DNA of 64,000 bases from positions 28,793-92,792 of the forward strand of contig CAWANZ010000007.1 of the NCBI GenBank assembly GCA_963783665.1, written 5' to 3'. A model generated the notes under the pieces. That model was not told the DNA's origin, did no database searches, and saw nothing but the letters and a program-made list of their open reading frames with translations. The stretch comes from Candidatus Aminicenantes bacterium (lineage in GTDB: Bacteria; Acidobacteriota; Aminicenantia; Aminicenantales; UBA4085). The position numbers were made by a program, and so were the translations under genes. Positions 19,933-46,453 of the stretch are shown one piece after another; position 1 is the first letter of the stretch; every line of letters begins with the position of its first letter.

Positions 19933-22900
19933 ATGGGATCAAACTGGACGACGATCATCGCCTCGACGCCCAATACGAATTCTTTTTCCTGGACCTTGCC
20001 GATCGTCGTTTCGGCGAATGGCCTGGTCCGGGTAAGCGATGCCGCCGTATCGGCGATCAACGACGCGAGCGACACGGTGTTTGCGATCGTCCTCGCCGCG
20101 GTTTCCGGGACCGACCGGGCGGCCTTGATCGATCTGTATAACGCGACAAACGGGGATTCCTGGACGAACAATACGGGGTGGAAGACGGCCCCTCTTCATA
20201 CCGACGGATTTGCCCTGCCGGGTACCGAAAACACCTGGTTTGGCGTTACCACCGACGGTACGAATACGAACGTCCTGAACGTGTCTTTACCCGGCAATAA
20301 CCTGGTCGGCACTCTACCGGCCAGCTTGGGGAATCTGACGAACCTGCAAGAGCTCATTCTTTATTCCAACCAGCTCTCGGGGAGCATTCCGGCCAGTTTT
20401 GGCAGCCTGAGCAACTTGGTCACCCTCAACCTCTCCGGGAACCAGCTCTCGGGGAGTGTCCCGGCGGAATTGGGAAATTTGAACAATCTGCAATATTGCG
20501 TGCTTTTTAATAACCCGCTTTCGGGGAGCATTCCGCCGGAGCTGGGCAATTTGAGTCAGTTGAAGGAGCTCTGGATCTATCATAACCAGCTGACCGGAGC
20601 CATCCCGACGCAGCTCGGGAACCTGGGCAACCTGCTTAAGCTCGGCCTTTATGATAGTCAGCTCTCGGGGACCATTCCATCCAGCCTCGGCAATCTTAGC
20701 AATTTGCAAGAACTCTGGCTCTATAAAAACCAGCTGACCGGAAGCATCCCGGCGCAGCTCGGGAACCTGGGCAACCTGCTTAAGCTCGGCCTTTATGAAA
20801 ATCAGCTGACGGGAGCCATTCCGCCCGAACTGGGCAATCTGACCAATTTGACGGAGCTTTGGGCCTTTACCAATCTGCTCTCGGGGACCATTCCGGCGCA
20901 GCTGGCCAACCTCGTCAGTGTGATCAAACTCGATTTCTACGGCAACCAGCTGACGGGAAGCCTTCCGCCGGGGCTCGCGACTCTCGGCAATGTGCAACAC
21001 TTCGATTTCGGCTTGAATCAGCTCTCGGGAAGCATTCCGGCGGAATATGGAAATTTCAACAATGTCATTTATCTCGGCCTCGATCAAAACCAGCTGACCG
21101 GGGGCATACCGGCGGAGCTCGCCAGCCTCGGAACGCTCCAGCAGCTTCGTCTCGGCTCCAATCAGCTCTCCGGAAGCATTCCGGCGGAACTCGGCAGCCT
21201 AACAAATCTGACTTATCTCGGCCTTTATACAAACCAGTTGACGGGGACGATTCCCCCCGAGCTTGCCAATCTCACCCAACTGTATTATCTCGGCCTCCAA
21301 GCCAACCAGTTGACGGGTGGAATACCGATGGAGCTCGGAAACTTGGCTAATTTGGAATATCTCGTCCTCCGCTCCAATCAGCTGACCGGCGGCATTCCGA
21401 TGGAATTGGGGAATCTGAGCAAGCTGAAATGGCTCATTCTCCACTCCAATCAGCTCTCCGGGGAAATCCCGCCACAGATCGGCAACTTGACGAATTTGAC
21501 CGACCTTGATCTCCATTCCAACAAGCTGTCGGGAAGCATTCCGACTTCGCTGACCGGCCTTACGAGTTTGACCTCGACGACGACGAATATCGGCTACAAC
21601 GCCTTTTATTCCGCGGACGCCGGATTGACGGCATTTCTGGACGCCAAGGACGCCGACTGGGCGGTGACGCAAACGATCGCCCCAACAGGAGTATCGGCGG
21701 CCCCTGGTGACGCTTCGGCCGAGGTCACCTGGACTCCGATTCCGTATACCGGCGATACCGGCGGCTATCGGGTCTTTTACGCGACGACGGCCGGCGGGCC
21801 GTATACGTTCTACGCCCAGACCGCGGACAAAGCCGCGACTTCGCAAGTGGTAAGCGGCCTGACCAACGGGACGCCTTATTATTTCGTCGTCCAAACCCGG
21901 ACGGACGTCCATGCGGGAAACCTCAACGCTGTTGACAGCGGGAACAGTGACGAAGCCACGGCCACGCCGACACTCGTTACCACGGGGACGCTGACCCTGA
22001 CGGCGCCCAACGGCGGCGAAAATTGGCTTCTGGGATCCACCCACGGCATCCTCTGGACCTCGACGGGGACGGTGGGCAACGTCAAAATCGAATACTCGAC
22101 GGATAATGGCGCGAGCTGGAGGACGATCGTCTCTTCCAGGGCCAATACCGGAGGGTATTCCTGGACGTCGGGGAGCCCGACGGACCCCACGCTCAATACC
22201 TTGTCGACGACCTGCCTGGTCCGAATCAGCGGAGTGGCCGGAGAGGCGGTCCCGGACACAAGCGACGGGAACTTTGCGATTTCCGCGTCGGCGGCGATCA
22301 CCGGAACCATCACCGATCTTGCGGGAACACCCCTCCCTAATGCGTATGCGCAAGCTTTTGACTTGAATAACGTCCGCATCGTCACCCGTTTGGCGAACGC
22401 CTCGGGGGAATATTGGATGGCCGGGCTCCCGGCGGGGAGCTATAAGCTCGTCTTTTTCGCCGACTCTACGCAGAACAATCTTTATGAATGGTATGACGAC
22501 CAAAGGACGTTCAATGCGGCCGCGCCTATCGCCGTCACCTTGAACAACACGACGGCGAATATCAACGCGCAGCTGGCGGCCGGGGGGATCATCAGCGGCC
22601 GGGTGACGGATGAAACCGGGGCGCCCTTGGCCGAGGTCGTTATCGCGGCCTGGACGGAGGATGGCCTTTCCGGATATTGGGTTGCCGAATCGGACGGCAA
22701 TGGGGATTATCAGGTCAAGGGGCTGCCGGCGGGGAATATAAAGCTGATGTTCGAGCTTACGGGATATCCGGCGAAGTTTAACGGAAACGGCTATAGCTTC
22801 GAGCAATCCACGCCCGTTTCCGTCACTCTCGGCGCCGAAACATCGGGGATCAATATGGTCCTTGAAAAAGGCGGTCACATCAGCGGGACGATCATCGACG

Positions 22901-25900
22901 GAGCGGGGAATCCCGTTTCCGGCATTCGGGTGCTTACGTACGACGCGACCAGCCATGACTATTTAAGGCCCCCGGGAAACGTCGCCTTCACGGCGGCCGA
23001 CGGGACGTATTCCATCCAGGTGAGAGCGGGCCAGACTCATGTTCTCTTTGATGCCAGCGCGAAACCCGAGAGCGGGCTGCGTTCGCAGTTTTACAGCAAC
23101 CAGACGACGTTTGCGGCCGCGGGGTCGGTGGATGTGATCAAAGAAGGGACGACGCCGAACATCAACGCGACGCTGGCGGCCGGCGGGGGGACGCTTACGG
23201 TCCAGGTGACAAACGGCCTTGGGCAGGGCGTGGTCGCGTCTGTTTATCTGTATAACACCGAGACCGGCACCGAGACGCGAATGAGGCCGGGAGCGGCAAC
23301 CGACGCCAATGGGTATCTTGAGATCAAGGGGCTCATCCCCGGAAATTATAAAGTGAAAGTTTATGACTCCAACGATCAGTTGGGCCGATACCACACGGAG
23401 TGGTACGACAACGCCTTGACCTACGCCGGGGCGGCCCCGGTCAACGTCACGGAAGGGGGAACCACGGCGATCGCGGTGGTCATGGGCGAGACGGCCCCTG
23501 TCGCCCCGGAGATCAACCTGAAGCAGGGGGCGACGGATATCGCCACGGGCGGAACGTATGACTTCGGGTCGAAGACGGTCGGGACGGATACCGACACGGT
23601 CTTTACGATCGAAAACCTCGGGACGGACTCCCTGATATTGAGCGGACTGCCGCTTTCGATCACGGGAACGAATGCGGACCAGTTTGCGATCACCGTGCAG
23701 CCGACTTCGCCGGTGGCGAACGGCGGGACGAAGACCTTCACGGTCGGTTTCCATCCGACATCGCCGGGGGCCAAGACGGCCCAAATGTCGATTGCCAACA
23801 ATGACGGCAACGAGAATCCCTATGTCCTCAACCTGACGGGAACGGGCGGAGACGCCGCGGGGACGCTGACGGTCACATCCCCCAACGGCGGGGAGAGCTG
23901 GATCCTGGGCTCGACCCATAACGTCACCTGGACTTCGACGGGGACGGTGGGCAACGTTAAGATCGAGTATTCAACGGATAACGGCGCGAGTTGGATGACG
24001 ATCGTCGCCTCGACGCCAAACGACGGCGCGATTTCCTGGACCTCGGGCAGCCTGACCGACCCGGCGCTTAACACCGTGTCGACGACCTGCCTGGTGAAAA
24101 TCAGCGGAGTGGCCGGAGAGGCGCTTCCGGATCAAAGCGATGCGGTGTTCACGATCGCGGCCTCGGGGTTCATCCATGGAACGGTCACCGATTCTCTGGG
24201 GGCGCCGATTCCGGATGTACGGGTCTGCGCTTATGACCTGAATAATGTCTACATCTCGCGGGGGTGGACGAATGCGGCCGGGGAGTACGGGATCGGCGGG
24301 ATGGTTGCGGGGAGCTACAAGATCCTGTTCGATCCGACGGCGACGACGGGCAACTACCTTATCGAATGGTATAACAACCAGCCGAGCTTCAATGCCGGAG
24401 GTTCGGTGGCAGTGACGCTGAACAACGTAATCGAAGGGATCAACGCGCAGCTGAACCCCGGAGGGATGGTGAGCGGGCGCGTGATGGCGGAAGGCGGGGC
24501 GCCGTTGGAGGGAGTCGCCGTCACGGCCTGGATGGAGAATGGATTCTACGGTTTGTGGTATGCCGAGACGGACGCCAACGGAGACTACCGGGTCCAGGGG
24601 CTGCCGGCGGGGAATGTCCGGTTGATGTATTCTCTATCGGGGTATCCTCAGAAGTTTTACGGCAACGTCTATACGCTGGAAACGGGGACGAACGTCCCGG
24701 TAACGATCGGGACCGAAACGACGGGGATCAATATGGTCCTGGAAAAAGGCGGGACCATCAGCGGAACGGTGACCGACGGAGGAGGGAATCCAGTCTCCGG
24801 AATCAGGATCATCCCCTACGACGCAGCCAGCCATGATTATCTGAGGCCGACGGGAACGGTGTTGACGGGGGCGAATGGGACATACTCGGTGCTGGTGCGG
24901 GCGGGCCAGACCAAGGTGTTGTTCGACGCGAGCCCCAACCCCGGGAGCGGACTGCGGTCGCAGTATTACAACAACCAGACGACGTTTGCGGCGGCGGGGT
25001 CGGTGAACGTCGTCAAGGACGGGACGACGCCGAACATCAACGCGGTTCTGGCCGCCGGCGGCGGGACCATTACTGTCCAAGTGACGAACAGTCTCGGACA
25101 GGGGGTGCCGGCTGCGGTCTACCTCTATGATCCGGTCACGGAGACCCGGGTGACGATAGGCACTGCGACCGACGCGGGCGGATACGTGGAGTTCAAGGGG
25201 CTCATTCCCGGCAACTACAAGGTTAAAATTTATGACTCCAATGGGGAATGGGGGCGGTACTATGATGAATGGTACAACAACGCCTTGACTCATGCGATGG
25301 CTTCGCAGGTGAACGTGACGGAGGGAGGAACCACGGCCCTCTCGGTAGTTTTGAGCGAATCGGCGCCTGTTGCGCCGGAGATCAACCTGAAGCAGGGGAC
25401 GACGGATATCGCTACGGGCGGAACGCACGGATTTGGGTCGAGGATCGTCGGGACGGATACCGATGCGGTCTTCACGATCGAAAACCTCGGGACGGATTCC
25501 CTGACGCTGAGCGGACTGCCGCTTTCGATCACCGGAACGAACGCGGATCAGTTTGCGATCGCCGTCCAGCCGACCTCGCCGGTCGCGGCCGCGGGGACGA
25601 AGACGTTTACGGTCCGGTTCCATCCGACCTCGGTCGGGGCCAAAGCGGCCCAGATCTCGATCGCCAACAACGACAGCAACGAAAATCCCTATGTCCTCAA
25701 CCTGACTGGGACGGGCGCCGACGCCGCGGCGACGCTGACCGTGACGTCGCCCAACGGCGGCCAGAGCTGGATCGAAGGGACGGTCCACAATATCACCTGG
25801 ACGACGACCGGGACGGTGGCCAACGTCAAGCTTCAGTATTCGACGAACAACGGCGGCAACTGGACGACGATCGTCTCCTCGACGGCCAACACGGGAACCT

Positions 25901-27552
25901 ATGCCTGGATCGTGCCGAGCACCCTCTCGGTCAACTGTCTGGTCCTGATCAGCGGGGCCCCGTCGGGGATCCCGACGGACGCCAGCAACGCGGTCTTTGC
26001 GATCATCGCCGGCACGCCGACACTCGCCCTGTCGAAAACCGCGTTCAACTTCGGGTCGGAGCAGTATGGGACGCCGACGGCGGCCGAAACCTGCGTTGTG
26101 TCCAATAGCGGGACGGGAGTCATCAATTGGACGGCCACGCCATCGGCGGCTTGGCTCGGCGTGACGCCGGTCAGCGGGACCGGGGCGGGGACGCTGACGA
26201 TAAGTATCCTCGACACGAGTCTGTCTCCGGGCAATTACGCGGGAACGATCACGGTCGCCGATCCCGGGGCGATCAACTCGCCTCTGGCCATCACGGTGAA
26301 TTACCAGGTCTACGATAACGGGGCCGACGCCCCGCCGTTTGGGGCGTTTGAAACGCCGGCCGACGGAGCGACGGTCGCTTCCTCGATTCCGGTGACCGGT
26401 TGGGTCCTGGACGACATCGGGATGGTCGGCGTGAAGATCTACCGGGGGACGGACGCGTCCGACCGGGAATTCGTCGGAGACGCCATCCTGGTGAGAGGGG
26501 CCCGGAAGGATGTGGAGGCGGCCTATCCCGGCTATCCCCAGAACGAGGTCGCGGGATGGGGCTACATGCTCTTGACCAACTTCCTGCCCAACGGCGGCAA
26601 CGGGACATTCACGCTGCTGGCCTACGCCACGGACACGGGCGGCCACGAGGTTCTTCTCGGGTCCAAGACGATCACCTGCGATAATGAAAACGCCGTGTTG
26701 CCGTTTGGGGCGATCGACACCCCGACGCAAGGCGGAACGGCCTCGGGGAGCGCGTTCATGAACTTCGGCTGGGCTTTGACGCCCCGGCCCAACTCGATTC
26801 CGTTGGATGGTTCGACACTCCTGGTCTGGGTGGACGGTTCGCCGCTTTCCCATCCCTCCTACAACCATTACCGGGGAGATATTGCGACGCTGTTCCCCGG
26901 ATACGTGAACTCCAACGGAGCGGTCGGGCTGTACTTCCTGAATACGACGGCCTATACGGACGGAGTGCATACGATCGCCTGGAGCGTGCAAGATTCGGCG
27001 GGACATGTGGACGGGATCGGGAGTCGGTACTTCTCGATCCAGAATGCGGTCGGAGGGTCGAGCGCCGGAGCAACAGGGTTGCTGGTTTTGTTTGAATCGG
27101 CCGGAAAGATGTCCGAGACCGTGGCGGGGATGCGAGAAGACGGACGGAATCCGGTTTATGTGAAGCAGGGGATGGCCGCGGATGCGCGGGTCGAAATGGT
27201 TCTGCCCGATGCCGACGGCGCGATCCGGATCGCTATTCCTGAGGTCACCCGGGCGGCGATTTACCTGAAGGAAGCCGAAGCGGGAGAGACGCAGTCCGAA
27301 ATGATCGCCCGCGGGGCGCGGATGCTGAGCAAGGCAGCGTCGGCCGATTCCGTATCCGGTACCCATTATGAAGCCTACGAGCTGGCTCTCGGCGAGCTCA
27401 AGCCGCTCCCGATCGGGGCATCCTTCGATCCCGTCGACGGCGTGCTTTACTGGCAGCCTGGCCCGGGATTCTTGGGCGAGTATACCTTCGTTATCATCGA
27501 CCGGGAGACGGGAACAAAGCGAAATATTTCGGTAACGATCAAGTCCAGATAA
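19933..27552 (+). CDS. Giant surface/adhesin-like protein (2539-aa intact ORF): Ig-like GGESW domains, 18 LRRs, FN3, CarboxypepD_reg-like repeats, choice-of-anchor-D/HYDIN-like domains, then the shared BACON-like/double-Ig/He_PIG-like C-terminal module
   Basis: This is the longest ORF in the window. Its first residues (MGSNWTTIIASTPNTNSFSWTLP) are the middle of a domain that starts in ORF 19782.. (LAVTSPNGGESWVQGSIHDITWTTTGTVANVKLEYSTNNG). The real gene therefore very probably begins at 17498. Confidence 0.85.
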   Translation: MGSNWTTIIASTPNTNSFSWTLPIVVSANGLVRVSDAAVSAINDASDTVFAIVLAAVSGTDRAALIDLYNATNGDSWTNNTGWKTAPLHTDGFALPGTENTWFGVTTDGTNTNVLNVSLPGNNLVGTLPASLGNLTNLQELILYSNQLSGSIPASFGSLSNLVTLNLSGNQLSGSVPAELGNLNNLQYCVLFNNPLSGSIPPELGNLSQLKELWIYHNQLTGAIPTQLGNLGNLLKLGLYDSQLSGTIPSSLGNLSNLQELWLYKNQLTGSIPAQLGNLGNLLKLGLYENQLTGAIPPELGNLTNLTELWAFTNLLSGTIPAQLANLVSVIKLDFYGNQLTGSLPPGLATLGNVQHFDFGLNQLSGSIPAEYGNFNNVIYLGLDQNQLTGGIPAELASLGTLQQLRLGSNQLSGSIPAELGSLTNLTYLGLYTNQLTGTIPPELANLTQLYYLGLQANQLTGGIPMELGNLANLEYLVLRSNQLTGGIPMELGNLSKLKWLILHSNQLSGEIPPQIGNLTNLTDLDLHSNKLSGSIPTSLTGLTSLTSTTTNIGYNAFYSADAGLTAFLDAKDADWAVTQTIAPTGVSAAPGDASAEVTWTPIPYTGDTGGYRVFYATTAGGPYTFYAQTADKAATSQVVSGLTNGTPYYFVVQTRTDVHAGNLNAVDSGNSDEATATPTLVTTGTLTLTAPNGGENWLLGSTHGILWTSTGTVGNVKIEYSTDNGASWRTIVSSRANTGGYSWTSGSPTDPTLNTLSTTCLVRISGVAGEAVPDTSDGNFAISASAAITGTITDLAGTPLPNAYAQAFDLNNVRIVTRLANASGEYWMAGLPAGSYKLVFFADSTQNNLYEWYDDQRTFNAAAPIAVTLNNTTANINAQLAAGGIISGRVTDETGAPLAEVVIAAWTEDGLSGYWVAESDGNGDYQVKGLPAGNIKLMFELTGYPAKFNGNGYSFEQSTPVSVTLGAETSGINMVLEKGGHISGTIIDGAGNPVSGIRVLTYDATSHDYLRPPGNVAFTAADGTYSIQVRAGQTHVLFDASAKPESGLRSQFYSNQTTFAAAGSVDVIKEGTTPNINATLAAGGGTLTVQVTNGLGQGVVASVYLYNTETGTETRMRPGAATDANGYLEIKGLIPGNYKVKVYDSNDQLGRYHTEWYDNALTYAGAAPVNVTEGGTTAIAVVMGETAPVAPEINLKQGATDIATGGTYDFGSKTVGTDTDTVFTIENLGTDSLILSGLPLSITGTNADQFAITVQPTSPVANGGTKTFTVGFHPTSPGAKTAQMSIANNDGNENPYVLNLTGTGGDAAGTLTVTSPNGGESWILGSTHNVTWTSTGTVGNVKIEYSTDNGASWMTIVASTPNDGAISWTSGSLTDPALNTVSTTCLVKISGVAGEALPDQSDAVFTIAASGFIHGTVTDSLGAPIPDVRVCAYDLNNVYISRGWTNAAGEYGIGGMVAGSYKILFDPTATTGNYLIEWYNNQPSFNAGGSVAVTLNNVIEGINAQLNPGGMVSGRVMAEGGAPLEGVAVTAWMENGFYGLWYAETDANGDYRVQGLPAGNVRLMYSLSGYPQKFYGNVYTLETGTNVPVTIGTETTGINMVLEKGGTISGTVTDGGGNPVSGIRIIPYDAASHDYLRPTGTVLTGANGTYSVLVRAGQTKVLFDASPNPGSGLRSQYYNNQTTFAAAGSVNVVKDGTTPNINAVLAAGGGTITVQVTNSLGQGVPAAVYLYDPVTETRVTIGTATDAGGYVEFKGLIPGNYKVKIYDSNGEWGRYYDEWYNNALTHAMASQVNVTEGGTTALSVVLSESAPVAPEINLKQGTTDIATGGTHGFGSRIVGTDTDAVFTIENLGTDSLTLSGLPLSITGTNADQFAIAVQPTSPVAAAGTKTFTVRFHPTSVGAKAAQISIANNDSNENPYVLNLTGTGADAAATLTVTSPNGGQSWIEGTVHNITWTTTGTVANVKLQYSTNNGGNWTTIVSSTANTGTYAWIVPSTLSVNCLVLISGAPSGIPTDASNAVFAIIAGTPTLALSKTAFNFGSEQYGTPTAAETCVVSNSGTGVINWTATPSAAWLGVTPVSGTGAGTLTISILDTSLSPGNYAGTITVADPGAINSPLAITVNYQVYDNGADAPPFGAFETPADGATVASSIPVTGWVLDDIGMVGVKIYRGTDASDREFVGDAILVRGARKDVEAAYPGYPQNEVAGWGYMLLTNFLPNGGNGTFTLLAYATDTGGHEVLLGSKTITCDNENAVLPFGAIDTPTQGGTASGSAFMNFGWALTPRPNSIPLDGSTLLVWVDGSPLSHPSYNHYRGDIATLFPGYVNSNGAVGLYFLNTTAYTDGVHTIAWSVQDSAGHVDGIGSRYFSIQNAVGGSSAGATGLLVLFESAGKMSETVAGMREDGRNPVYVKQGMAADARVEMVLPDADGAIRIAIPEVTRAAIYLKEAEAGETQSEMIARGARMLSKAASADSVSGTHYEAYELALGELKPLPIGASFDPVDGVLYWQPGPGFLGEYTFVIIDRETGTKRNISVTIKSR
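20270..21575 (+). repeat. 18 tandem 72-nt (24-aa) leucine-rich repeats of the plant-specific type, inside the giant CDS
   Basis: Consensus L.NL..L.LY.NQL(S/T)G.IP.ELGN, counted 18 times in the translation. Some adjacent units are near-identical at the nucleotide level, for example CAGCTCGGGAACCTGGGCAACCTGCTTAAGCTCGGCCTTTATGA at about 20607 and 20751. Confidence 0.85.
21988..25731 (+). repeat. Intragenic tandem duplication of two ~1.87 kb units (about 625 aa each) inside the giant CDS
   Basis: Unit 1 (21988..23862) and unit 2 (23863..25731) both read TLT.T.PNGGE.W.LGSTH...WTSTGTVGNVKIEYSTDNGASW, then CarboxypepD_reg-like repeats, then APEINLKQG.TDIATGGT..FGS..VGTDTD.VFTIENLGTDSL.LSGLPLSITGTNADQFAI. 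A third partial unit starts at 25732. Confidence 0.85.
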
Positions 27553-36081: not shown

Positions 36082-38286
36082 ATGACGAACACGACGGGAG
36101 GGATCCAAGCGCCGCGGGTAGCGATCCTTCTTCTTTCGGCCGCCGTTTTGGCCTGGTTTCTATCGGCGTATGGCCCGGCCGAGCCCGGCCTCCGCGGGCT
36201 GATCCTGGCCGTCGGTATTCTCATCGCGGCCGCGGCCGCGTTTCGCCCGGCTTGGGGCCTCGCGGCCTTCGTTTTTTTGCTTCTGACGGCCAACAACTGG
36301 CCTTATTATTTCCAGTCCCGCCACGGCGTCTTCTACGTCCGCGTCGCGGCGATCCTCTTCTTGTTCCTGGCCGCGGGTTGGAATCTGCGGCGGGCGGTCG
36401 TCCGCCGGGAAAGCGAAACGGATGGCGAAGCGTCGCTTCCGGCCGCGGTCGGAAGGCCGCTGGGATTTGCGGCCGCGGTCATCGTGATATCGGCGGGAGT
36501 CGCGTTTTGGCGATGGGCGAATTTTTACCCTGTTTGGGGAAACGGCGTCTTTGACTGGATGACCAACTCCAACGGTCTTTTTGCCGCCTTGGCCCGCCGG
36601 GGCGCGGTCATGAGCGCGGCCGGATATCTCCTCCCGTTCGCCTTCCTGGCGATCGCGGCGAAAACGATGAAAACCCGGGCCGGTGTCGAGCCCGTCCTCC
36701 GAGCGGCGAGTCTCGGCCTCGGCTTGGCCGTCGTCTTCGGCTATGTTCAGCATTTCGCCTCGCCGGGCTTGGGGAATACCGATTTTTGGGTGAAGCTGGG
36801 CCAGATCAACGGAACGTTCATCGACCCGAATGCCTATGGCGCCGTTTTGGCGATCCTGATCCCGATGGTCTTCGCCGCGGCCGTGGACGGCTGGGCGAAA
36901 GCGAAAGGGATCGGGAAGGCGGGCGGGTGGCCGGCGGCTGCGGCGGCCGTCGCGGGCCTCGGTACGGTCGCCTTTCTCTGGATCGGAGCCCGGTCCTCCG
37001 TTCTGGCGTTTGCCGCCGGAATGGCGGTGTTTGCGGTCGGAGCGTTCGTCTCCCGAAAAAAGGACGGAACTCGTTTGCCGGCCGGCACGGACGACGCGTC
37101 CCGCGAGGCGGGTGCGGGTCATAAGAAGCGGACGTTGCGGCGGCGATGGATGGCGGCCGCGGCGATCGTGCTTCTCGTTTCCGGCGGCGGGCTTTTTTTT
37201 CGCTCCCGGCTGTTTGTCCGGTTGAAGGACCGGACGCGGATGGCCGCGGCGACCGGGGACCTCCTTCTGCTTTCGCCCGAACGGTATTTCCTCTGGAAAC
37301 ACGCCCTGGCGATGACCCGGGATTATCCTGTGTCCGGTGTCGGCGTCGGGGCGTTTATCGTCGTGCTCCCTGATTACTATCAACTGGACAAGACTCCGGC
37401 TCCGGCGGGATTCGAAGGGTATCAACGCCTGGACTCGGCGGAAAATTTCTTCCTCCAAGCCGCGGCCGAGACCGGCCTGATCGGCCTTGCCGCCTGGATC
37501 GCGGTATGGATTGGGCTCGCTTGGAAAATCCGGCGGGCGGTCCTGGCCGGAATTCTCCGGGGTTCGGACCGGTGGCTCTTCCTGGGCGCGGTCGGCGGTC
37601 TGACCGGATTTTTCGTCAACGCTTTGTTCCATTCCTTCACCCAGAGCTTCGAAACGATGTTTTGTTTCTGCCTGGCGGCGGCCGTGGTCGTCGTCCTGGG
37701 CCCGAGGCAAGAAGGCGGCGCCACGCCTCACCTCGGCCGTCCGGCGCTTTTGCTCCTTGTCCTCCTCCTCCTTCTCATCGTCTTCGGCGCTTCGAGCTTC
37801 AGGGATTCCAGCCGGAGCTTGTCCATCGCCGCTAAATCGGAGGCTTTCGGGCTTTCCCAGGAATTCGGGCTTTATCGCCCCGAACAGGACGAAAACGGAA
37901 CTCCGTTCCGATGGACGAAAGACGAGGCGGCTTGGACGGTCGAGGTGACGGGACGGACCCTGCGCCTTCCCGTCCGGATCTCCCATCCCGACGCCGCCGC
38001 CGAGCGCCCGGTGAGGGTGAAGGTCTCGATCGGAAAATACTTGTTGAGGGATGAGGTCCTTCTGGGCGAGGCGGTCTGGACGGAATCCGGCCGGAAAGTC
38101 CTGGAATTTCCCCTCCCGGCCGGGTACGGGGGAAGGGCGACGATCCGCCTGGTCGTCGATCGAACCTGGGTTCCGAGCGCAAAGGATCCCCGGCGCCTCG
38201 GGGCGGCTGTCGAGCCCGCACCGAATTCTTTTAAACAATTGAATATAAATAAGATGCTGAGGTCCGACCCCAATAATCAGATCTAA
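36082..38286 (+). CDS. O-antigen ligase/polymerase-like (Wzy_C family) polytopic membrane protein with a ~190-aa C-terminal soluble domain
   Basis: Intact 734-aa ORF with more than 10 hydrophobic segments. The Wzy_C-like loop reads SRLFVRL...[25 protein letters not shown]...[22 protein letters not shown]. Confidence 0.75.
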
Positions 38287-38327
38287 TATGTTATAATCCG
38301 GAGGTATTTCGAGGAAAGGACGGTTCG

Positions 38328-39215
38328 ATGAAGGGCATCATCTTGGCCGGCGGCAAAGGCACCCGCCTCAACCCGTTGACCCTTTCGGTCAGCAAGCAGC
38401 TTCTCCCGGTTTATGACAAGCCGATGATCTATTATCCGCTGTCGATGCTGATGCTGGCCGGGATCCGGGAGATCCTGGTGATCACCACGCCCGAGTCGCT
38501 CCCGGCCTTCCGCGAGCTGCTCGGGGACGGCCGGCAGTGGGGACTGTCGCTTCGACGTTCAAGGCCCAGGACAAGCCGCGCGGCCTGGCCGACGCCTTTC
38601 TCGTCGGCCGCGAATTCGTGGCCGGGAAGCCGGTTTGCCTGATCCTGGGCGACAACATCTTTTTCGGCCACGGGCTGGCCGGCCAGCTGAAAAAATCGGC
38701 CCAGCTGCAAATCAGGGGCGATCGTCTTCGCCTATCCGGTCAAGGACCCCGAGCGGTACGGCGTCGTCGAATTCGACGCCGAGCGGCCGGGCGGTCAGCA
38801 TCGAAGAAAAGCCGGCCAAGCCGCGGTCGCATTTCGCCGTCCCGGGCCTGTACTTTTACGACGGCCGGGTCTCCGAATACGCGGCCGCCCTCAAACCGTC
38901 GCCTCGGGGCGAGATCGAGATCACCGACCTCAACCTGGAATACCTGCGGCGCGGCGAGCTCAAGGTCGAAGAGATGGGACGGGGCGTGGCCTGGCTCGAC
39001 GCCGGAACCCACGAATCGCTCCTCCAGGCGGCCAATTTCGTCCAGGCGGTCGAGGACCGGCAGGGGCTGATGATCGCCTGTCCGGAGGAAATCGCTTACC
39101 ACCCGGGTATATCGACGCAAAGCAGCTGCGCCGCCTGGCCGCGGCCATCCCGAACGCCTACGGCGAGTATCTTGTCCGGCTGTCCCATGAGCCGGCCGAT
39201 GGGGGAGTCAAATGA
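38328..39215 (+). CDS. rfbA: Glucose-1-phosphate thymidylyltransferase, frame-shifted
   Basis: [55 protein letters not shown], then ...[17 protein letters not shown]...LILGDNIF.G, then ...[20 protein letters not shown]...[14 protein letters not shown], then ...[20 protein letters not shown], spread over three frames. The stop TGA 39213..39215 overlaps the rfbC ATG. Confidence 0.8.
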
Positions 39216-39667
39216 TTCAAGGCGTCATCGTTAAAAAGCTCAAGGTCATCCCCGACGAGCGGGGCCGGTTGATGGAAATCTTCCGGGCCGACGACGAATT
39301 CTTCGAGAAATTCGGCCAGGCCTATATGACCACCACCTATCCCGGGGTCATCAAGGGCTGGCATAAGCACGAAAAGCAGGCCGACAACATGGCCTGCGTC
39401 CACGGGATGGTCAAAGTCGCCCTTTGCGACGCCCGGGAGGGCTCGCCGACCAAGGGCGAGATCAACCAGTTCTACATGGGCGTGCACAATCCGCTCCTCA
39501 TCCACATCCCGACCGGCGTTTATCACGGCTGGATCTGCACGAGTCCGGAGGAGTCCATCGTCGTCAACGTCCCGACCGAGCCGTATGATTACAAGAATCC
39601 GGACGAGCAGCGGCTCGACCCCCATTCGGGCGAAATCCCCTACGACTGGGAGCGGAAAGACGGTTGA
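39212..39667 (+). CDS. rfbC: dTDP-4-dehydrorhamnose 3,5-epimerase (short cupin-type RmlC)
   Basis: Intact 151-aa ORF: [14 protein letters not shown]...[38 protein letters not shown]...[10 protein letters not shown]. Confidence 0.8.
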
Positions 39668-39761
39668 GCCCGGGCCGATCCCGGAGCGGTCGATTTCGGA
39701 ATAAGTCAGCGGAGAAGCCCATATGAAGAAATCCGAAAAGCCGCGTCCCGCGCAAAAATAA

Positions 39762-40824
39762 AACATCAAATCGGCAAGACGAAACCCGTCCCGGAGCGCA
39801 AGCTCGAACGGCAAAACCATCCTGGTCACCGGCGGGGCCGGATTCATCGGGAGCAACTTCATCCGGATGATGCTGGCCAAGCACGACGAGATCCGGATCA
39901 TCAACCTCGACAAGCTGACCTATGCCGGTAATCCCGAGAACATGGCCGACTTCAAATGCGACTCTCGCCATGAGTTCGTCCACGGCGACATCCGCGACGC
40001 CGGGCTTGTGTCCGGGATCTTCGAGCACGTCCAGGGCGTCGTCCACTTCGCCGCCGAAACCCACGTCGACCGGTCGATCGTCGACGCCGGCGAATTCGTC
40101 CTGACCGATGTCTACGGGACCTATGTGCTCCTGGAAGCCCTCCGGAAATCGCCCCAGGTCGAGTTCTTCGTCCATATCTCGACCGACGAAGTCTACGGAA
40201 GCCGGGAGACGGGCTTCTTCAAGGAAACCGATCCGATCAATCCTTCTTCGCCGTATGCCGCCAGCAAAGTCGGCGCCGATCGGATGGTCCAGGCGTATCA
40301 CACGACATACGGCTCGCCGGTCCTCATCGTCCGGCCGAGCAACAACTACGGGCCGTACCAGTTCCCGGAAAAATTCATCCCCCTGTTCACGACCCACGCC
40401 ATGGAAGAGAAAAATCTCCCGCTTTACGGCAAGGGCCGCAACGTCCGCGACTGGCTGCACGTCGAGGACAACTGCCGGGCGATCGAGCTGGTGGCCCGCA
40501 AGGGGACGATCGGCGAGGCTTATAACATCGGGGCCAACGATGAGCGGATGAATATCGAAGTCGCCAAGCGGATCGTCAAGCTCGTCGGGGCTTCGCAAGG
40601 ACCTGATCAGGTTCGTCCCGGACCGGCTCGGCCACGACACGCGATATGCCGTTAACATTAATAAAATCAAGGCCTTAGGATGGAAGCGGGAGGTCGATTT
40701 CGAAGACGGGATCGTCTCGACCGTGAAATGGTATATGGACAACCGGGACTGGTGGACGCGGATCAAGGAAAAGAGCGTCGAGTTCAAATCGTTCTACGAG
40801 AATTATTACAAAGACCGGAAATAA
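39762..40824 (+). CDS. rfbB: dTDP-glucose 4,6-dehydratase. The start is unresolved and there is a frame shift near 40600.
   Basis: KTILVTGGAGFIGSNF begins at 39813, followed by ...HFAAETHVDRS...STDEVYG...PYAASKVGADRMVQAY. The C-terminus KDLIRFVPDRLGHDTRYAVNINKIKALGWKREVDFEDGI...WW is in a second frame, with the stop at 40822..40824. There is no ATG/GTG/TTG between an in-frame TAA (39759) and the Rossmann motif. An upstream ATG at 39723 is in the same frame but separated by that TAA. Confidence 0.8.
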
Positions 40825-41121: not shown

Positions 41122-42465
41122 TCATTTTTTAATCAGGGCGAAGGCGCGCTCTAAAACTGGATCCTTGCCAGAAAGATAGTCGGCGATGCCGGGTTCGACC
41201 GGGTAATCCGGGAGGACGCCCCGGTAACGGGGCAGCGTTTTGACCGCCGCGGTAAATGTCATCCGGGCGATCGTCACGGCCAAGCCCGAATTTTTCAGCC
41301 GGACTTCCCGGGAGGCGTCGTTGCATTCGTAGGTTCCGCCGGTTTCGGAGCCGATCAAGGTCCCGATGGCGTGCTCCTTGAGAAGGGCGGTGATGTGGCC
41401 CGTCGAGGAAAAGCAGCCTTGATTGATGAGGACGAACAGCTTCCCTTCGAAGGCGCCGGCGGCCCGGGGGATGGGCTCGGCGAAGCGGGCGTAACCGCCC
41501 GGATAGACCCGGGCGAAATACGGAATGGGGTTCGGCTCCAGGTAGCCGAGGAGATGGGTTGTGCAGAAGGGATCGCCGCCGCCGTTGTCGCGCAGGTCGA
41601 GGATCAGATTGCGGACGCCCGCGGCGCGGATGCGGGTGAAGGAATCGTCGATAAACGCCTTGAACTTATCCACCGCCTGGTAATAGGAAAAGTTCCGGAT
41701 CGTCAGAATGGCCGTCCCTGCCGGGTCCTCGAGAATTTCGAAATCGAGATTGGGATCGCCCGTCGAGGTCGGACGATTATTCCTAGGGGGATCAGCCGGT
41801 ATTTGATTGTAACTAACGCCCCGGAGGCGGAGCGTTTCGGGTTCGTTCCGGCCGGGAAGCCGCGCCTCGACGACGAATTCCTCGGGAAAGCCGAACCGAT
41901 GAGCGTAAATCGGGGCGAACGCCGCGCTGAGCCTGAAGGTCTTGTTCCCGTCATTCGCGCCGTCGCTGGACGTCAGGGATTTGAGGACGGCCAGGATCTC
42001 CGGGATGGTTTGCCCATTGATGGCCGCGATTTCGCTTCCCGCGGGAAGGCGGGCGGCGGCCTCGGACGCGCCGGTCACGAAAGCCCGGTTGCCGAAAAAT
42101 CTGATCTTGAGAGGAAAAAAGCGCGCCGGCGCGTTTTGCCAGTATGCGGGCGGGGTGATCAACCGGGTATGGCCGCAGCCGACGGCTGTGATGAGGGGAG
42201 CGGCGATCGAATAGAATTGGCCGAGCGTCATCGGTCCGGTGATCAATCCGATCTGCTTTTCGTAGAGTCGCTCGAACGATTCTTTATCCGTGAATCCATA
42301 AACCGCCGGATGCGAATTTTCCAGGGCTGAGCGGATTTGGAGCAAGTCGGCTCTCAGATCCTCGGCTGAAAAAGCCGTTAAAGCGGGCTCGGGTTGAATG
42401 ATGCCGGAGTCGCACGGCGTTCCCAAGAAGGCCAGGGCCGTCATCAATGCCAGCGCGATTTTCAT
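41122..42465 (-). CDS. S41-family (tail-specific/C-terminal processing type) serine peptidase, secreted
   Basis: Intact 447-aa ORF with a signal peptide. LILDLRDNGGGD and FVLINQGCFSSTGHITALLKEH are typical S41 catalytic Ser/Lys region patterns. Confidence 0.85.
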   Translation of the reverse strand: MKIALALMTALAFLGTPCDSGIIQPEPALTAFSAEDLRADLLQIRSALENSHPAVYGFTDKESFERLYEKQIGLITGPMTLGQFYSIAAPLITAVGCGHTRLITPPAYWQNAPARFFPLKIRFFGNRAFVTGASEAAARLPAGSEIAAINGQTIPEILAVLKSLTSSDGANDGNKTFRLSAAFAPIYAHRFGFPEEFVVEARLPGRNEPETLRLRGVSYNQIPADPPRNNRPTSTGDPNLDFEILEDPAGTAILTIRNFSYYQAVDKFKAFIDDSFTRIRAAGVRNLILDLRDNGGGDPFCTTHLLGYLEPNPIPYFARVYPGGYARFAEPIPRAAGAFEGKLFVLINQGCFSSTGHITALLKEHAIGTLIGSETGGTYECNDASREVRLKNSGLAVTIARMTFTAAVKTLPRYRGVLPDYPVEPGIADYLSGKDPVLERAFALIKK

Positions 42466-42648: not shown

Positions 42649-42678
42649 TTGACAGGCCGAACTTCGATCGGCCATAAT
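42649..42678 (+). promoter_or_regulatory. Sigma70-like promoter candidate for the selenoprotein gene
   Basis: TTGACA (42649..42654), an 18-nt spacer, then CATAAT (42673..42678). It lies about 20 nt upstream of ATG 42699, in an AT-rich divergent intergenic region. Confidence 0.45.
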
Positions 42679-42698: not shown

Positions 42699-44867
42699 AT
42701 GAAAAAATTCTTTTTCCCTGCCGTCATCTTTTGTCTTGCCGTTTCGGTTGCGCCCGCGGAAGCGTTGAAGTGGCGAACCGGCTCCGTGGATGCCGCCCTG
42801 GCCGCGGCCAGAGCCGAGGGCAAGCTTCTCCTGATCGACTTCTTTACCGAAACCGGCTGAGGGAACTGCATCCTGCTGGGTCAGCAGGTTTATAATAATC
42901 CTTCCTACGCCGAATATCTCGATAAGCACTTCGTTCTTCTCCGGGTCACCCGGAACGAAATTGACGGCGAAAAAATGGTCAAGGCCTTCGGGGTCAGAAG
43001 GACGCCGTACGTCCTGATCCTCGACCCGGACGAACAGATTCGGGATTGGCTGGCCGGATACCTGCCGCCGGCGGAAGCGTATTTCGCCCGTCTCCAAGCC
43101 GCGGTCCGGGGAGAGGACACGGTCCGGGAGCTCTCCCGCCGGCTTTCGGCCGAGCCCGGGAATCCGGAGATCCGGATCAAGCTCGGCCTCAAGGAGCAGG
43201 AGCGCGACAATCGCGAGGAAGCGCTGGCGTTTTTCCGGGAAGCCGCTTCGCTCGACCCCGACGGGACGATCATGATGAAAAGCGACACCGGCGCCCTTGT
43301 CTCCTGCCGGGAGACGGCCGAGTATCAGCTCGTGCGGACCCCCATGGCGACTTCCGGAATCATCGAATCACGGCCGTTGCTGCGAATACATCAAGACGCA
43401 TCCGGACGGCCCGTATTTGCGCGACGCCTGCCTGACCATCACCCGCGGCCTGATCATGGACGAAAAAGAAGACCGGGAATTATTGAACTTGATGATGGAC
43501 CGGATCCCTCCGGATCCCGCCATCGCCGGCGTTTTGGCCAGGCGGCGGTCGAACGGATACGGGGGCCAGGTGATCAAAGAGCTGTCGGATAAGATCCGGG
43601 CTTACGCCGACGGGTCGGTGAAACGGGTCCCGGAATTTTCCCCCGTCGCGGCGGCTCAAAACCAGGCCGAGATCAACATGAATGCGAACGATCTGGCTGC
43701 GGCGGAAATCGCCTACGGCCCGGATTTCATGGCCGCTCAAACCCGGGCCTGGGCCAGGTCGCTCCTGGATTACGCCGATTACTGGAGGTCGAAAACCAAG
43801 GACAAGCTCGACGTGTTTCCGGCCGTCCGGCTGGCCCTCGAGATGCGGCCGGACGACCTGGCGATCCGAGCGGCGGCGGCGAAAGTGTATGCTTATGACC
43901 CGCCCCGGCTGGAAGACGCCCTGGCCGTCTACGGTCCCGAGCCGTTTCGTCGTCTGGCCGTGACGACCCAGGAATATTATGATTATTTCAGCTTCTGGAC
44001 GGCGCGGAAAGCCAACCGGGAAAGCGCCCTGGCCGCCCTGGAGAACGTCCTTCAAAGAGAGCCGGACAGCCTTCATTTCCGCTCCTCCTCCGCTTCCGCG
44101 CTTTACCGGGCCGGCGAGAAGGAAAAGGCCCTGGCCGTTTTCGGTCCGGCCTATGCCGATTCCCATTCCGAGCGCCTGTCGCATCTTTTTGAGTACGGAA
44201 GCTTCTGGGTAGGCCGGAAGGAAAATCTTGAAAGCGCGGTCCCGGCGTTGGTGAAAGCCGTTTCCGACCCGGCCATCCCGGCGATCAGCAAATGGCGGGC
44301 GGCCCAATTACTGGACGAAAGCGGCCGGCTCGCCGAAGTGGAACGATTCTTCGGACCGGCGTCCCTTCCGGGAATCAAGGATGACGCGCACGGCTTAGAT
44401 TTCTATATCGATTTCTGGAAGGAAAAGAAAAGCCGCCGGAATTCATCCTTCCGGCCATCGCCTTCAAGGAAAAAATCCCCGACTTGGACTGGATGGATCG
44501 TTCCCAGATCGCCTGGGCTTATGCCGGGTTGAATCTCCCCGCCCGCGCCGAAAAAGTTTACGGGCCGGAATATGCGAAGACGATTGCCGGAGAGGGAAGG
44601 CAATTGTTTTACTATGCCTCCTTCTGGGCCCGGCAGAAATTAAACCTCGCCTCGGCCTTAAATGCGGCTCAATCCGCGGTCCGGCTCATTCCGGATGACG
44701 CCGAAGCCTGGGCCTGCCTGGCCGACCTGCTCCTAATCGACGGCAGGAAGGAGGAGGCCGTGAAGGCAGCGGAAAAGGCCGTCGGCCTGGCCAAATCGAA
44801 AGAGGATAAAGAGAGGTTCGAGCGGCGAAAGGCGGAGATATCGGGCCTCGAGAAAAAACGCGGATAA
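42699..44867 (+). CDS. Periplasmic thioredoxin-fold (UxxC) candidate selenoprotein fused to a long TPR-like helical-repeat region. In-frame UGA at 42858, plus two frame shifts near 43380 and 44450.
   Basis: The signal peptide is MKKFFFPAVIFCLAVSVAPAEA. The domain then reads GKLLLIDFFTETG-TGA-GNCILLGQQVYNNPSYAEYLDKHFVLLRVTRNEIDGEKMVKAFGVRRTPYVLILD. The same frame runs on into ORF 42975..43592. The helical repeats continue in ORFs 43297..44532 and 44484..44867. Confidence 0.7.
42872..42888 (+). promoter_or_regulatory. Candidate bacterial SECIS stem-loop
   Basis: CCUGCU(G)-GGU-(C)AGCAGG is a 6-7 bp perfect stem starting 11 nt after UGA. The loop GGU sits at +22..+24 from the U of UGA. Confidence 0.55.
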
Positions 44868-44971: not shown

Positions 44972-46453
44972 ATGTGCGGCGTTATAGGAATCTGGGCAAA
45001 CGGACAAGTCTTTCGCGACCTTTACCAGGGCATGCTGGCCATCCAACACCGGGGCCAGGACTCGGCCGGGATCATCACCTTCGATGACCGATTCCACACC
45101 AAGAAAGGCAACGGCCTTGTCCGGGACATTTTCAGCGCCGTCCACGCCGAGCGCCTGACCGGGAAAATCGGGATCGGCCACACCCGCTACCCGACGATCG
45201 GCGGGGGCCGGGGCGAGGACGCCCAGCCCTTTCAGCTGAACGCGCCCTTCGGGATCATCATGGCCCACAACGGGAACGTGGTGAACTACGGCGCCCTGAA
45301 AAAACACCTGACCGAGAAGCACCGCCGGATGCTGAACTCCGATAACGACGTCGAGAGCATCCTGAACATCTTCGCCGTCGCCCTGGAAGCCCAAAACCCG
45401 TCCGAGCTGACGCCGGACATCGTCTTCCAGGCCGTCGCTTCGGTCTTCCGGCAGGTCGTCGGGAGCTATTCCGTGATCGCCTATATCGCCGGACAGGGGA
45501 TGGTCGCCTTCCGCGATCCTTTCGGGATCAAGCCGCTCGTTTGGGGCCAGCGCCGCGACGGGGTCATCCCGTCCTACGCCGTCGCCTCCGAGAGCGTCTC
45601 CCTCAACATCATGAACTTCTCCGACATCCGGGACGTCGCGCCCGGCTCGGCGCTGTTCATCGACAAAAACCGCGAGGTCCATATGCGGCGGATCTCGGTC
45701 AAGCCCCATTCCCCCTGCCTCTTCGAATGGGTTTACTTCGCCCGGCCCGATTCGGTCATCGACGGGGTCAACGTCTACCGGGCCCGGGTCCACATGGGCG
45801 AGCTCCTGGCCGAGGAAATCCGCAAGCTCGGCCTGTCGATCGACGTCGTCGTCCCGATCCCCGATTCGGCCCGGGACGCGGCCATCGAGATTGCCCGGAA
45901 GCTCGACCTGAAATACCGCGAAGCCCTGGTCAAGAACCGGTACATCGGCCGGACCTTCATCATGCCGGCCGAAAACGACCGCCAGAGCACGGTCCGGTAC
46001 AAGCTCAACCCCATCGCCTCCGAATTCAAGGACAAGGACGTTCTCCTGGTCGACGACAGCATCGTCCGGGGCAACACCTCCCGGGCCATCGTTCGGCTGG
46101 TCCGGGATTGCGGGGCCCGGAACGTCTATTTCGCTTCCTGCTCACCGCCTCTTCGCTTCCCCTGCGTTTACGGGATCGACATGCAGACCCGGACGGAATT
46201 CGTCGCCCGGGATCGCGATTTCGACGAGATCGCCAAGCGGATCGGGGCGGACAAGGTCATCTACCAAACCCAGGCGAACCTGATCAAGGCCGTCCAGATG
46301 GAGAATCCCAACCTCGGCCGGTTCTGCGCGGCCTGTTTCGACGGTAATTACATCACCGGGGATGTCACTCCGGAGATGCTCGCCTCGATCGAGGAAGAGC
46401 GCCGGACCTTGTCGTCCGGCCAGCTGGCGCTTCAAATCAAGTCCGCCCTTTAA
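44972..46453 (+). CDS. purF: Amidophosphoribosyltransferase
   Basis: Intact 493-aa ORF. The N-terminal nucleophile is MCGVIGI. Also present are ...HRGQDSAGI...GIGHTRYPT...AHNGN and the PRPP-binding loop VLLVDDSIVRGNTS. Confidence 0.95.
   Translation: MCGVIGIWANGQVFRDLYQGMLAIQHRGQDSAGIITFDDRFHTKKGNGLVRDIFSAVHAERLTGKIGIGHTRYPTIGGGRGEDAQPFQLNAPFGIIMAHNGNVVNYGALKKHLTEKHRRMLNSDNDVESILNIFAVALEAQNPSELTPDIVFQAVASVFRQVVGSYSVIAYIAGQGMVAFRDPFGIKPLVWGQRRDGVIPSYAVASESVSLNIMNFSDIRDVAPGSALFIDKNREVHMRRISVKPHSPCLFEWVYFARPDSVIDGVNVYRARVHMGELLAEEIRKLGLSIDVVVPIPDSARDAAIEIARKLDLKYREALVKNRYIGRTFIMPAENDRQSTVRYKLNPIASEFKDKDVLLVDDSIVRGNTSRAIVRLVRDCGARNVYFASCSPPLRFPCVYGIDMQTRTEFVARDRDFDEIAKRIGADKVIYQTQANLIKAVQMENPNLGRFCAACFDGNYITGDVTPEMLASIEEERRTLSSGQLALQIKSAL

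Follow-up and report, generated by a model that had tools for sequence, protein, structure and literature searches.

Thioredoxin-fold proteins in which selenocysteine (Sec) takes the place of the first Cys of a CxxC motif, giving UxxC, constitute the commonest class of computationally discovered selenoproteins. In these proteins, the selenolate makes the attack, and a selenenylsulfide is formed with the resolving Cys (PMC13188914). The Sec residue is delivered to a UGA codon in the ribosomal A site by SelB, which, as the complex SelB-GTP-Sec-tRNA(Sec), binds the apical loop of a hairpin called the Sec insertion sequence (SECIS) (PMC13188914). According to the bSECISearch consensus quoted in Fig. 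2 of that work, from which the SECIS criteria of the present study were taken, a bacterial SECIS has an apical loop of 3–9 nt, an upper stem of 4–16 bp, a G in the first two loop positions (pattern G[G|U]N), a distance of 16–37 nt from the UGA to the apical loop, and a minimum free energy (MFE) of −7.5 kcal/mol or lower (PMC13188914). Within the Acidobacteriota, the use of Sec has been reported in an Occallatibacter species (PMC12013277). The present study concerns another member of this phylum, a Candidatus Aminicenantes bacterium, and a stretch of its DNA of 64,000 nt (contig CAWANZ010000007.1, positions 28,793 to 92,792 of the forward strand; hereafter, the window), in which a gene of ~722 codons, located at 42699..44867 on the + strand, contains an in-frame UGA at 42858..42860. 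Very probably, this UGA genuinely codes for Sec, and the gene belongs to a selenoprotein family.

Conservation of the in-frame UGA

The frame from ATG 42699 reads MKKFFFPAVIFCLAVSVAPAEA-LKWRTGSVDAALAAARAEGKLLLIDFFTETG-TGA-GNCILLGQQVYNNPSYAEYLDKHF, and in the vicinity of the UGA it reads ...KLLLIDFFTETG-TGA(42858–42860)-GNC(TGC 42867–42869)ILLGQQ.... The UGA, on the + strand, occupies the nucleophilic first position of a U-G-N-C redox motif, and the codon for the resolving Cys of this motif (TGC at 42867..42869, + strand) is invariant across the aligned family members. An earlier note on this DNA had placed the start codon, the TGA and the Cys codon at these positions, had followed the frame into the open reading frame (ORF) at 42975..43592, and had considered the UGA to stand at the position of the nucleophilic Cys and to be probably no error. 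All these coordinates and the continuation of the frame were found to be correct, and the other two proposals agree with the results described below, namely the TGA conserved in 73 of 73 independent loci and in a distant relative, and the alignments to solved structures.

In the nine closest homologues (36–82% identity), which lie on nine independent metagenome contigs, TGA is found at the identical codon without exception, in the motif G-U-G-N/S-C. No further stop occurs beyond it for ~670 codons, and each of the full-length homologue genes (~720 codons) contains exactly one internal stop. A scan of one representative genome per GTDB species provided 64 further loci in 48 genomes, nearly all of them Candidatus Aminicenantes or Aminicenantales, and again TGA was present in all 64, within the G-U-G-N/S-C motif. 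Two to four paralogues exist in 13 of the 48 genomes, and two of the genome records are complete chromosomes of ~4.3 Mb. The nine contigs and the 64 genome loci together form the family set of 73 loci to which the counts below refer. In all of them, as in the distant relative, the in-frame TGA is flanked by conserved coding sequence on both sides, which is one in-silico hallmark of a selenoprotein gene. The residues directly following the TGA (G-N/S-C-x-LL-G/V-QQ) are the most conserved of the whole protein, and no conserved start codon was found 3′ of the TGA among the aligned family loci.

The database records have a form that corresponds to this structure. All 13 homologous protein entries examined (32–82% identity) are truncated at the N-terminus and start just 3′ of the UGA position, while on each contig a "gene" of 51–54 aa is annotated upstream of the truncated one; the gene is therefore split in every record into an orphan ORF and a truncated protein named after tetratricopeptide repeat (TPR), PilF or TadD proteins. 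Because the entries are truncated at the TGA, a word-index protein search with the thioredoxin (Trx) domain alone gave zero matches.

The pattern used for the genome scan began right after the Sec codon and included the LLxQQ peptide, which biases it toward Sec forms. Since Cys forms could have been missed for this reason, an exhaustive HMMER search of 1.84 billion representatives was carried out using the 90 residues after the UGA as the query, and 94 hits were obtained. Among them, 56 homologue clusters carry CxxC, the first Cys of which is aligned to the UGA, and in 27 the annotated protein begins immediately behind the Sec position, as is characteristic of Sec forms. One hit shows a Trp, which is a TGA translated under genetic code 4 by the gene caller (locus L078), and one shows a Ser (TCA) on an error-prone long-read contig (L080). 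The Cys forms are uninterrupted ORFs. The closest of them, P0020 (L079), has 509 aa, 39% identity over the query, the same TPR motifs, and a TGC at the codon in question; its site reads CQGC-DLLSRQ, and the LLGQQ peptide, the coding sequence of which forms the hairpin considered in the next section, is lost. In alignments to the nearest solved structures found by sequence, namely 2kuc_A (E 1.8e-10), 2lst and the gamma domain of DsbD (6dnl, E 5e-3), the UGA likewise falls on the first Cys of CGPC or CPYC. The structure 2kuc is that of a Bacteroides "putative disulphide isomerase". Thus, the question raised earlier, whether homologues have Cys or Sec at this position, is answered by both: Sec in the 73 loci and in L078, and Cys in the 56 clusters, including P0020, and in 2kuc, 2lst and 6dnl. 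Such a pairing with Cys homologues is a second in-silico hallmark of selenoproteins.

Two of the exceptional hits deserve description. L078 (107–1159, protein P0049) is a lipoprotein-type relative of 31% GC with the same order of a Thioredoxin_7 (Trx7) domain and TPR, and has its TGA in D-G-U-G-G-C. It carries a hairpin, AGACC-AGUU-GGUCU, located 22 nt from the UGA, which is of other sequence and of the same geometry. P0049 is recorded in databases with a Trp at the active site, the caller having used genetic code 4, and such calls may conceal more selenoproteins in public protein sets. In L080 (1501–1962, P0016), TCA stands in place of TGA, and the hairpin is kept via a compensatory change from G:C to C:G at the closing pair. 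Frameshifts are found close by in L080, and a real SxxC variant and a base-call error are indistinguishable there.

The hairpin downstream of the UGA

The hairpin at 42872..42888 on the + strand consists of a 7-bp stem, CCUGCUG/CAGCAGG (42872–42878 and 42882–42888), and the loop GGU (42879–42881). It has a free energy of −10.4 kcal/mol and is the MFE element of its region. It begins 11 nt after the UGA, the loop lies at +22..+24 from the U of the UGA, and the distance from the UGA to the loop is 18 nt. The same stretch codes for the peptide I-LLGQQ-V. The stem, its position and that of its loop are as the earlier note described them. The likeness to the SECIS of E. coli fdhF proposed there was also borne out by comparison with the fdhF sequence: in both genes, the hairpin sets in 11 nt past the UGA, and nt 22–25 are the apical GGUC, so that G23 and U24, which contact SelB, are in the same register. 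The family hairpin differs from that of fdhF in being a perfect helix of 7–9 bp with a 3-nt loop and without the bulged U17, and in having a loop that varies among the paralogues.

All four properties of the published consensus are found in the window hairpin and in 71 of the 73 family sequences. The 3-nt loop and the stem of 7–9 bp occur in all 73, and the loops, which are GGU (34 sequences), GUU (22), GUC (14) and GGC (3), conform to G[G|U]N. The spacing between the UGA and the loop is 18 nt in every one of the 73 and 22 nt in L078. The energy limit, evaluated on a 21-nt core, is reached by 71 of the 73, the two exceptions being at −6.3 kcal/mol.

The manner in which the stem has evolved is informative as well. 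Positions 21 and 37 are paired in all 73 sequences, as A:U in 56, C:G in 9 and G:U in 8. The stem Leu codons are all CTG in the eight homologues tested, although this codon accounts for only 21–34% of all Leu codons of these genes; for the stem codons of the eight, a naive joint probability of 1.6e-12 results, uncorrected for phylogeny. Among the 73 sequences, the only other stem Leu codon is TTG, found in three loci and each time paired with CAA, i.e., CTG...CAG has become TTG...CAA by a doubly synonymous swap of C:G for U:A. At the closing pair of L080, G:C has been exchanged for C:G. Pairing amounts to 90% in register, as compared with 15–55% in slid-register controls. Covariation of the helix is therefore present, with few variable pairs and among related sequences. 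A hairpin in one sequence is by itself weak evidence, and its significance comes from the comparative data; on these, the identification of 42872–42888 as a bacterial SECIS element is supported.

If so, the near-invariant SECIS in the fdhF register offers a good case of an RNA signal constraining a protein helix; the Sec forms hold LL-G/V-QQ and the Cys form drifts off it. Given the register shared with fdhF, heterologous expression might also succeed in E. coli.

Gene structure and alternative explanations

The window copy of the gene has 83% DNA identity to an intact orthologue on contig L001 (2797–4965), in which there is one internal TGA only and no frameshift. Alignment to L001 located two 1-nt indels in the window copy (+ strand) in addition to the single Sec-UGA: an insertion near 43382, where the gene leaves the frame of the ORF at 42975..43592, and a deletion near 44424, where the frame is restored. 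As for the extent of the gene, the earlier note had the start and the frame right and missed both frameshifts as well as the TPR region of ~580 aa. Upstream, a sigma-70-like site at 42649..42678 on the + strand (TTGACA, an 18-nt spacer and CATAAT; 11 of 12 consensus positions) ends 20 nt 5′ of the ATG. As 0.7 such sites are expected in the region and a single one was found, its assignment as a promoter is suggestive only.

Three parts can be distinguished in the product. One is the signal peptide MKKFFFPAVIFCLAVSVAPAEA (42699..42764, + strand), which ends in a cleavage-type motif AEA. By a heuristic looking for an n-region with K/R and a hydrophobic core, signal peptides were called in 67 of the 73 loci, and the six loci without a call are artefacts of start-codon choice; the N-termini of the family typically show MKK or MRK, a hydrophobic stretch and small residues ahead of the conserved mature N-terminus. 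The signal peptide noted earlier is thus conserved in at least 67 of the 73 loci, and this feature alone suggests a periplasmic or envelope location. Another part is the Thioredoxin_7/Thioredoxin_2 domain (42777..43028, + strand; residues 27–110). With Cys put in for Sec, it matches PF13899 Thioredoxin_7 (E 7.8e-12, 45.6 bits against a cutoff of 27) and PF13098 Thioredoxin_2 (E 1.3e-10), which agrees with the Thioredoxin_7-like layout recognised previously. The last part is an all-alpha superhelical domain of TPR type, ~580 aa long (43116..44864, + strand), within which both indels of the window copy lie. Pfam TPR matches C-terminal of the Trx domain are weak. The AlphaFold model of the orthologue P0001, which covers the part after Sec, shows a TPR-type solenoid of ~40 helices with a mean predicted local distance difference test score of 82.5. 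A Foldseek search with this model returned only generic TPR superhelices at low template modelling (TM) scores, the best being Ski3, Prp6, OGT-TPR, Tom70 and LbcA. Taken together, these features support the view that the gene product is an exported protein of ~722 aa with a Sec-type signal peptide, a U-G-N-C domain of the Thioredoxin_7 fold and a TPR superhelix of ~580 aa.

Several points weigh against a functional selenoprotein gene. The z-score of the hairpin relative to shuffles is only −1.37, which is not unusual for one sequence, and an equally good hairpin conforming to the model follows 54 of the 1516 TGA triplets of the window (3.6%). The six core pairs of the stem are nearly invariant, so the covariation rests on two or three pairs in related sequences. 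Rfam scans at the gathering threshold and in permissive mode found no SECIS or other relevant family; accordingly, of the SECIS model scan proposed earlier, the comparison with the published bSECIS criteria was positive and that with Rfam was not. The presence of LLxQQ in the main scan pattern favours Sec forms among the 64 genome loci, a bias that the exhaustive HMMER search offsets in part. ARAGORN and tblastn with E. coli SelA, SelB and SelD, applied only to the window (64 kb) and to related loci totalling 510 kb, detected no tRNA-Sec, selA, selB or selD, and these pieces are small and uninformative in this respect. No universal neighbour or conserved operon partner that would support a specific function was found among the family loci. 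Finally, the window copy carries two frameshifts.

This last point leads to the most probable of the rival explanations, according to which the family is genuine and the window copy is a decaying pseudogene. In its favour, there are the two indels themselves, defined against the intact orthologue of 83% identity, and a long homopolymer is found at neither of them. On the other hand, a similar density of 1-nt indels is seen in the adjacent housekeeping genes: numerous ones occur at 38286–40824 (rmlA/rmlC/rmlB) relative to intact genes of 86% identity on L001. Moreover, the two indels together restore the frame, identity remains ~83% between and after them, and no extra stops occur in the correct frames. 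Because the neighbouring rmlA/C/B genes carry similar lesions relative to the same contig, the frameshifts look like window-wide assembly or long-read errors, as far as sequence comparison can tell, and not like decay of this gene in particular. The adjacent purF (44972–46453) aligns without coding indels. The pattern suggests that the whole window derives from an indel-prone (long-read?) assembly and not from a pseudogene-rich genome. We therefore regard decay of the window copy as unlikely.

Decoding of the UGA by a different residue, be it Trp or Gly under a reassigned code, Cys, or the product of near-cognate leaky read-through, is a very improbable alternative. The Trp recorded in P0049 would be in its favour, and as described above this Trp originates from a caller using code 4. 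TGA is a real terminator in this lineage: it closes 4 of 8 homologue genes and 26 of the 56 long ORFs of the window, and among these ORFs it is the commonest stop. Only one internal TGA exists per gene, and it stands where 56 homologue clusters have the catalytic Cys; with Trp or Gly in its place, the redox site would be lost, yet the resolving Cys of this site is invariant. Generic read-through would leave the conserved SelB-type hairpin in the fdhF register unexplained.

It is hardly credible that the UGA is a true stop, ending a gene for a secreted peptide of 53 aa that is followed by a separately initiated TPR gene, with the hairpin acting as an intrinsic terminator or attenuator. Gene callers do annotate two genes everywhere, and a terminator scan flags 42872–42888 together with UUUAUAAUAAU as terminator-like. 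The T-tract, however, is peculiar to the window, homologues reading GTTTACGAC or TTCTACAAC instead, and the reading of the hairpin as an intrinsic terminator was rejected because the T-tract is not conserved; terminator-like sites also occur at the level of shuffled sequences (5 against 4.3 expected). A stop at this codon would cut the thioredoxin fold exactly at its catalytic residue, the most conserved residues follow the TGA without a conserved start codon, and the Cys forms are continuous.

Lastly, the probability that the TGA arose by faulty sequencing or assembly, or by a recent nonsense change from TGC or TGT, is practically negligible: the window does contain many lesions, such as the 1-nt indels in the rml genes and in this gene, but these are indels and not substitutions, and the same codon is TGA in 73 of 73 independent loci, which come from many samples and were assembled with various programs (short-read k141 and NODE contigs among them), as well as in the distant low-GC relative L078. 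A genuine Sec codon is thus the reading that we adopt.

Function, neighbourhood and relation to known systems

Under the Sec reading, the following scheme can be proposed. With the UGA standing in the A site of the ribosome, the SECIS at 42872–42888 would recruit SelB together with GTP and Sec-tRNA(Sec), and Sec would be inserted where a thioredoxin-type CxxC has its nucleophilic Cys. Once the protein is exported, its Sec/Cys pair would cycle between the selenol/thiol and the selenenylsulfide, and this redox centre may reduce, oxidise or isomerise disulfides (or sulfenates) of envelope proteins. The TPR domain would serve as a module for binding clients or partners, by analogy with CnoX. We infer the actual insertion of Sec and the presence of selABCD, and the redox direction and the clients are likewise presumed. 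The role of a client-binding envelope oxidoreductase is a proposal that we favour slightly. The mechanism itself would be unsurprising, given how common the UxxC class is.

As to the neighbourhood, cydA and cydB are located directly upstream on the same strand in 13 loci of one paralogue subclade (e.g., L045, 48–2024), which may connect this one subfamily functionally with oxygen or redox stress. Genes for DUF5128 proteins (6-bladed beta-propeller), often in several copies, adjoin seven loci and are found, for example, in the flanks of L002, L004, L005, L007 and L009; BNR/Sortilin-Vps10 proteins follow the family gene in L008 and L010. Methyltransferase, esterase and similar neighbours recur in subclades only, and this limited recurrence is probably synteny by relatedness. 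An S41 (C-terminal processing) peptidase gene adjoins the gene in the window (41122–42465, − strand) and in L001 (5008–6345). The bacterial structure that superposes best on the TPR domain is LbcA (TM 0.33–0.41), the TPR partner of the S41 protease CtpA. The S41 adjacency, found in two related loci only, may be a coincidence.

Elsewhere in the window, a search for a second selenoprotein yielded 105 candidate ORFs bridged by TGA, essentially all of which are off-frame noise in GC-rich sequence. There are also an ORF of 2539 aa at 19933–27552 (+ strand) and two other in-frame stops pointed out previously, TAG 19156 and TAA 39759.

In the literature, an inventory of 2026 comprising ~110 prokaryotic selenoprotein families makes no mention of TPR or Aminicenantes; its entries are generic Trx-fold UxxC proteins, e.g., "Thiol:disulfide interchange protein, PF13098". 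BSepDB (its supplements aside) and deep-Sep mention no TPR or Aminicenantes selenoprotein either, and full-text searches gave nothing relevant on selenoproteins of Aminicenantes or Aminicenantia or on tetratricopeptide selenoproteins. The Trx7-TPR family therefore appears to be undescribed as such. A wider proposal is that the window gene is the first to be recognised from a group of secreted Trx7-TPR selenoproteins ("periplasmic seleno-chaperedoxins") that spans the lineage and is undescribed, its members being almost all in the Sec form, with two to four paralogues per Aminicenantes genome and sometimes linked to cydAB; we consider this proposal evenly balanced. If it is true, envelope thiol and redox homeostasis would be selenium-dependent in the Aminicenantes, which are abundant uncultured anaerobes, and all current annotations ("PilF/TadD-like TPR protein" plus a 52-aa orphan) would be wrong. 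The truncated members P0004, P0006, P0009, P0012 and P0014 are entered by their sources as "Flp pilus assembly protein TadD", "Tfp pilus assembly protein PilF" or "TPR repeat protein", all of which derive from generic TPR similarity alone. Recognition of the Sec codon would correct a systematic annotation error in which split calls hide a redox-active domain, and would extend the prokaryotic selenoproteome by a family of distinctive architecture, in which a secreted Trx7 domain is joined to a long TPR. The family would also indicate a substantial dependence on selenium in a widespread uncultured lineage.

The similarity to curated models (NCBIfam release 20, the source of the curated selenoprotein models) is limited to the domain level: TsoB NF045694 scores 27.4 against a cutoff of 805 bits, Trx7/PDZ NF041199 24.8 against 300, and VPGUxxT NF041383 24.9 against 275. 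DsbD NF001419 scores 21 against 330 bits, with an alignment confined to the region of the gamma domain. The DsbD gamma domain and the Bacteroides Thioredoxin_7 proteins of the 2kuc type resemble the family as exported thiol-disulfide oxidoreductase domains, the active sites of which are aligned residue for residue. They differ in having Cys (WCGPC) and no long TPR fusion, and in DsbD the gamma domain sits at the C-terminus of a membrane electron transporter.

In domain order, the family resembles CnoX (YbbN), the E. coli chaperedoxin, in which an N-terminal thioredoxin fold is followed by a client-binding TPR and which is a helpful guide to a possible mode of action. CnoX is cytoplasmic, has 284 aa, an SxxC/CxxC thioredoxin domain (PF00085) and no Sec, whereas the family is predicted to be secreted and selenium-dependent. 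Homology over the Trx and TPR parts received an hhalign probability of 17.9%, and a signal peptide is present here, so that, judged from these sequence data, CnoX is an analogue and not a relative in the sense of a family. The Trx7/PDZ proteins (NF041199), among the best NCBIfam matches, are likewise selenoproteins in which Thioredoxin_7 is combined with a domain for protein interaction. They have Sec at the second position of the motif (CxxU, PMC13188914), as opposed to the first here (UxxC), and their fused domain is PDZ in place of TPR.

With the published Trx-fold UxxC selenoproteins, the family has in common a fold of the Thioredoxin_2/7 type, Sec in place of the first Cys of CxxC, a SECIS that follows the UGA immediately within the coding sequence, and the existence of Cys homologues; it is thus still within the most familiar class of bacterial selenoproteins. 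By comparison with the descriptions of those proteins, it is set apart by the C-terminal TPR superhelix of ~580 aa, by the motif G-U-G-N/S-C as opposed to W-C/U-x-x-C, by an almost invariant SECIS, CUGCUG-GKY-CAGCAG, and by its centre in the Aminicenantes, with up to four paralogues per genome.

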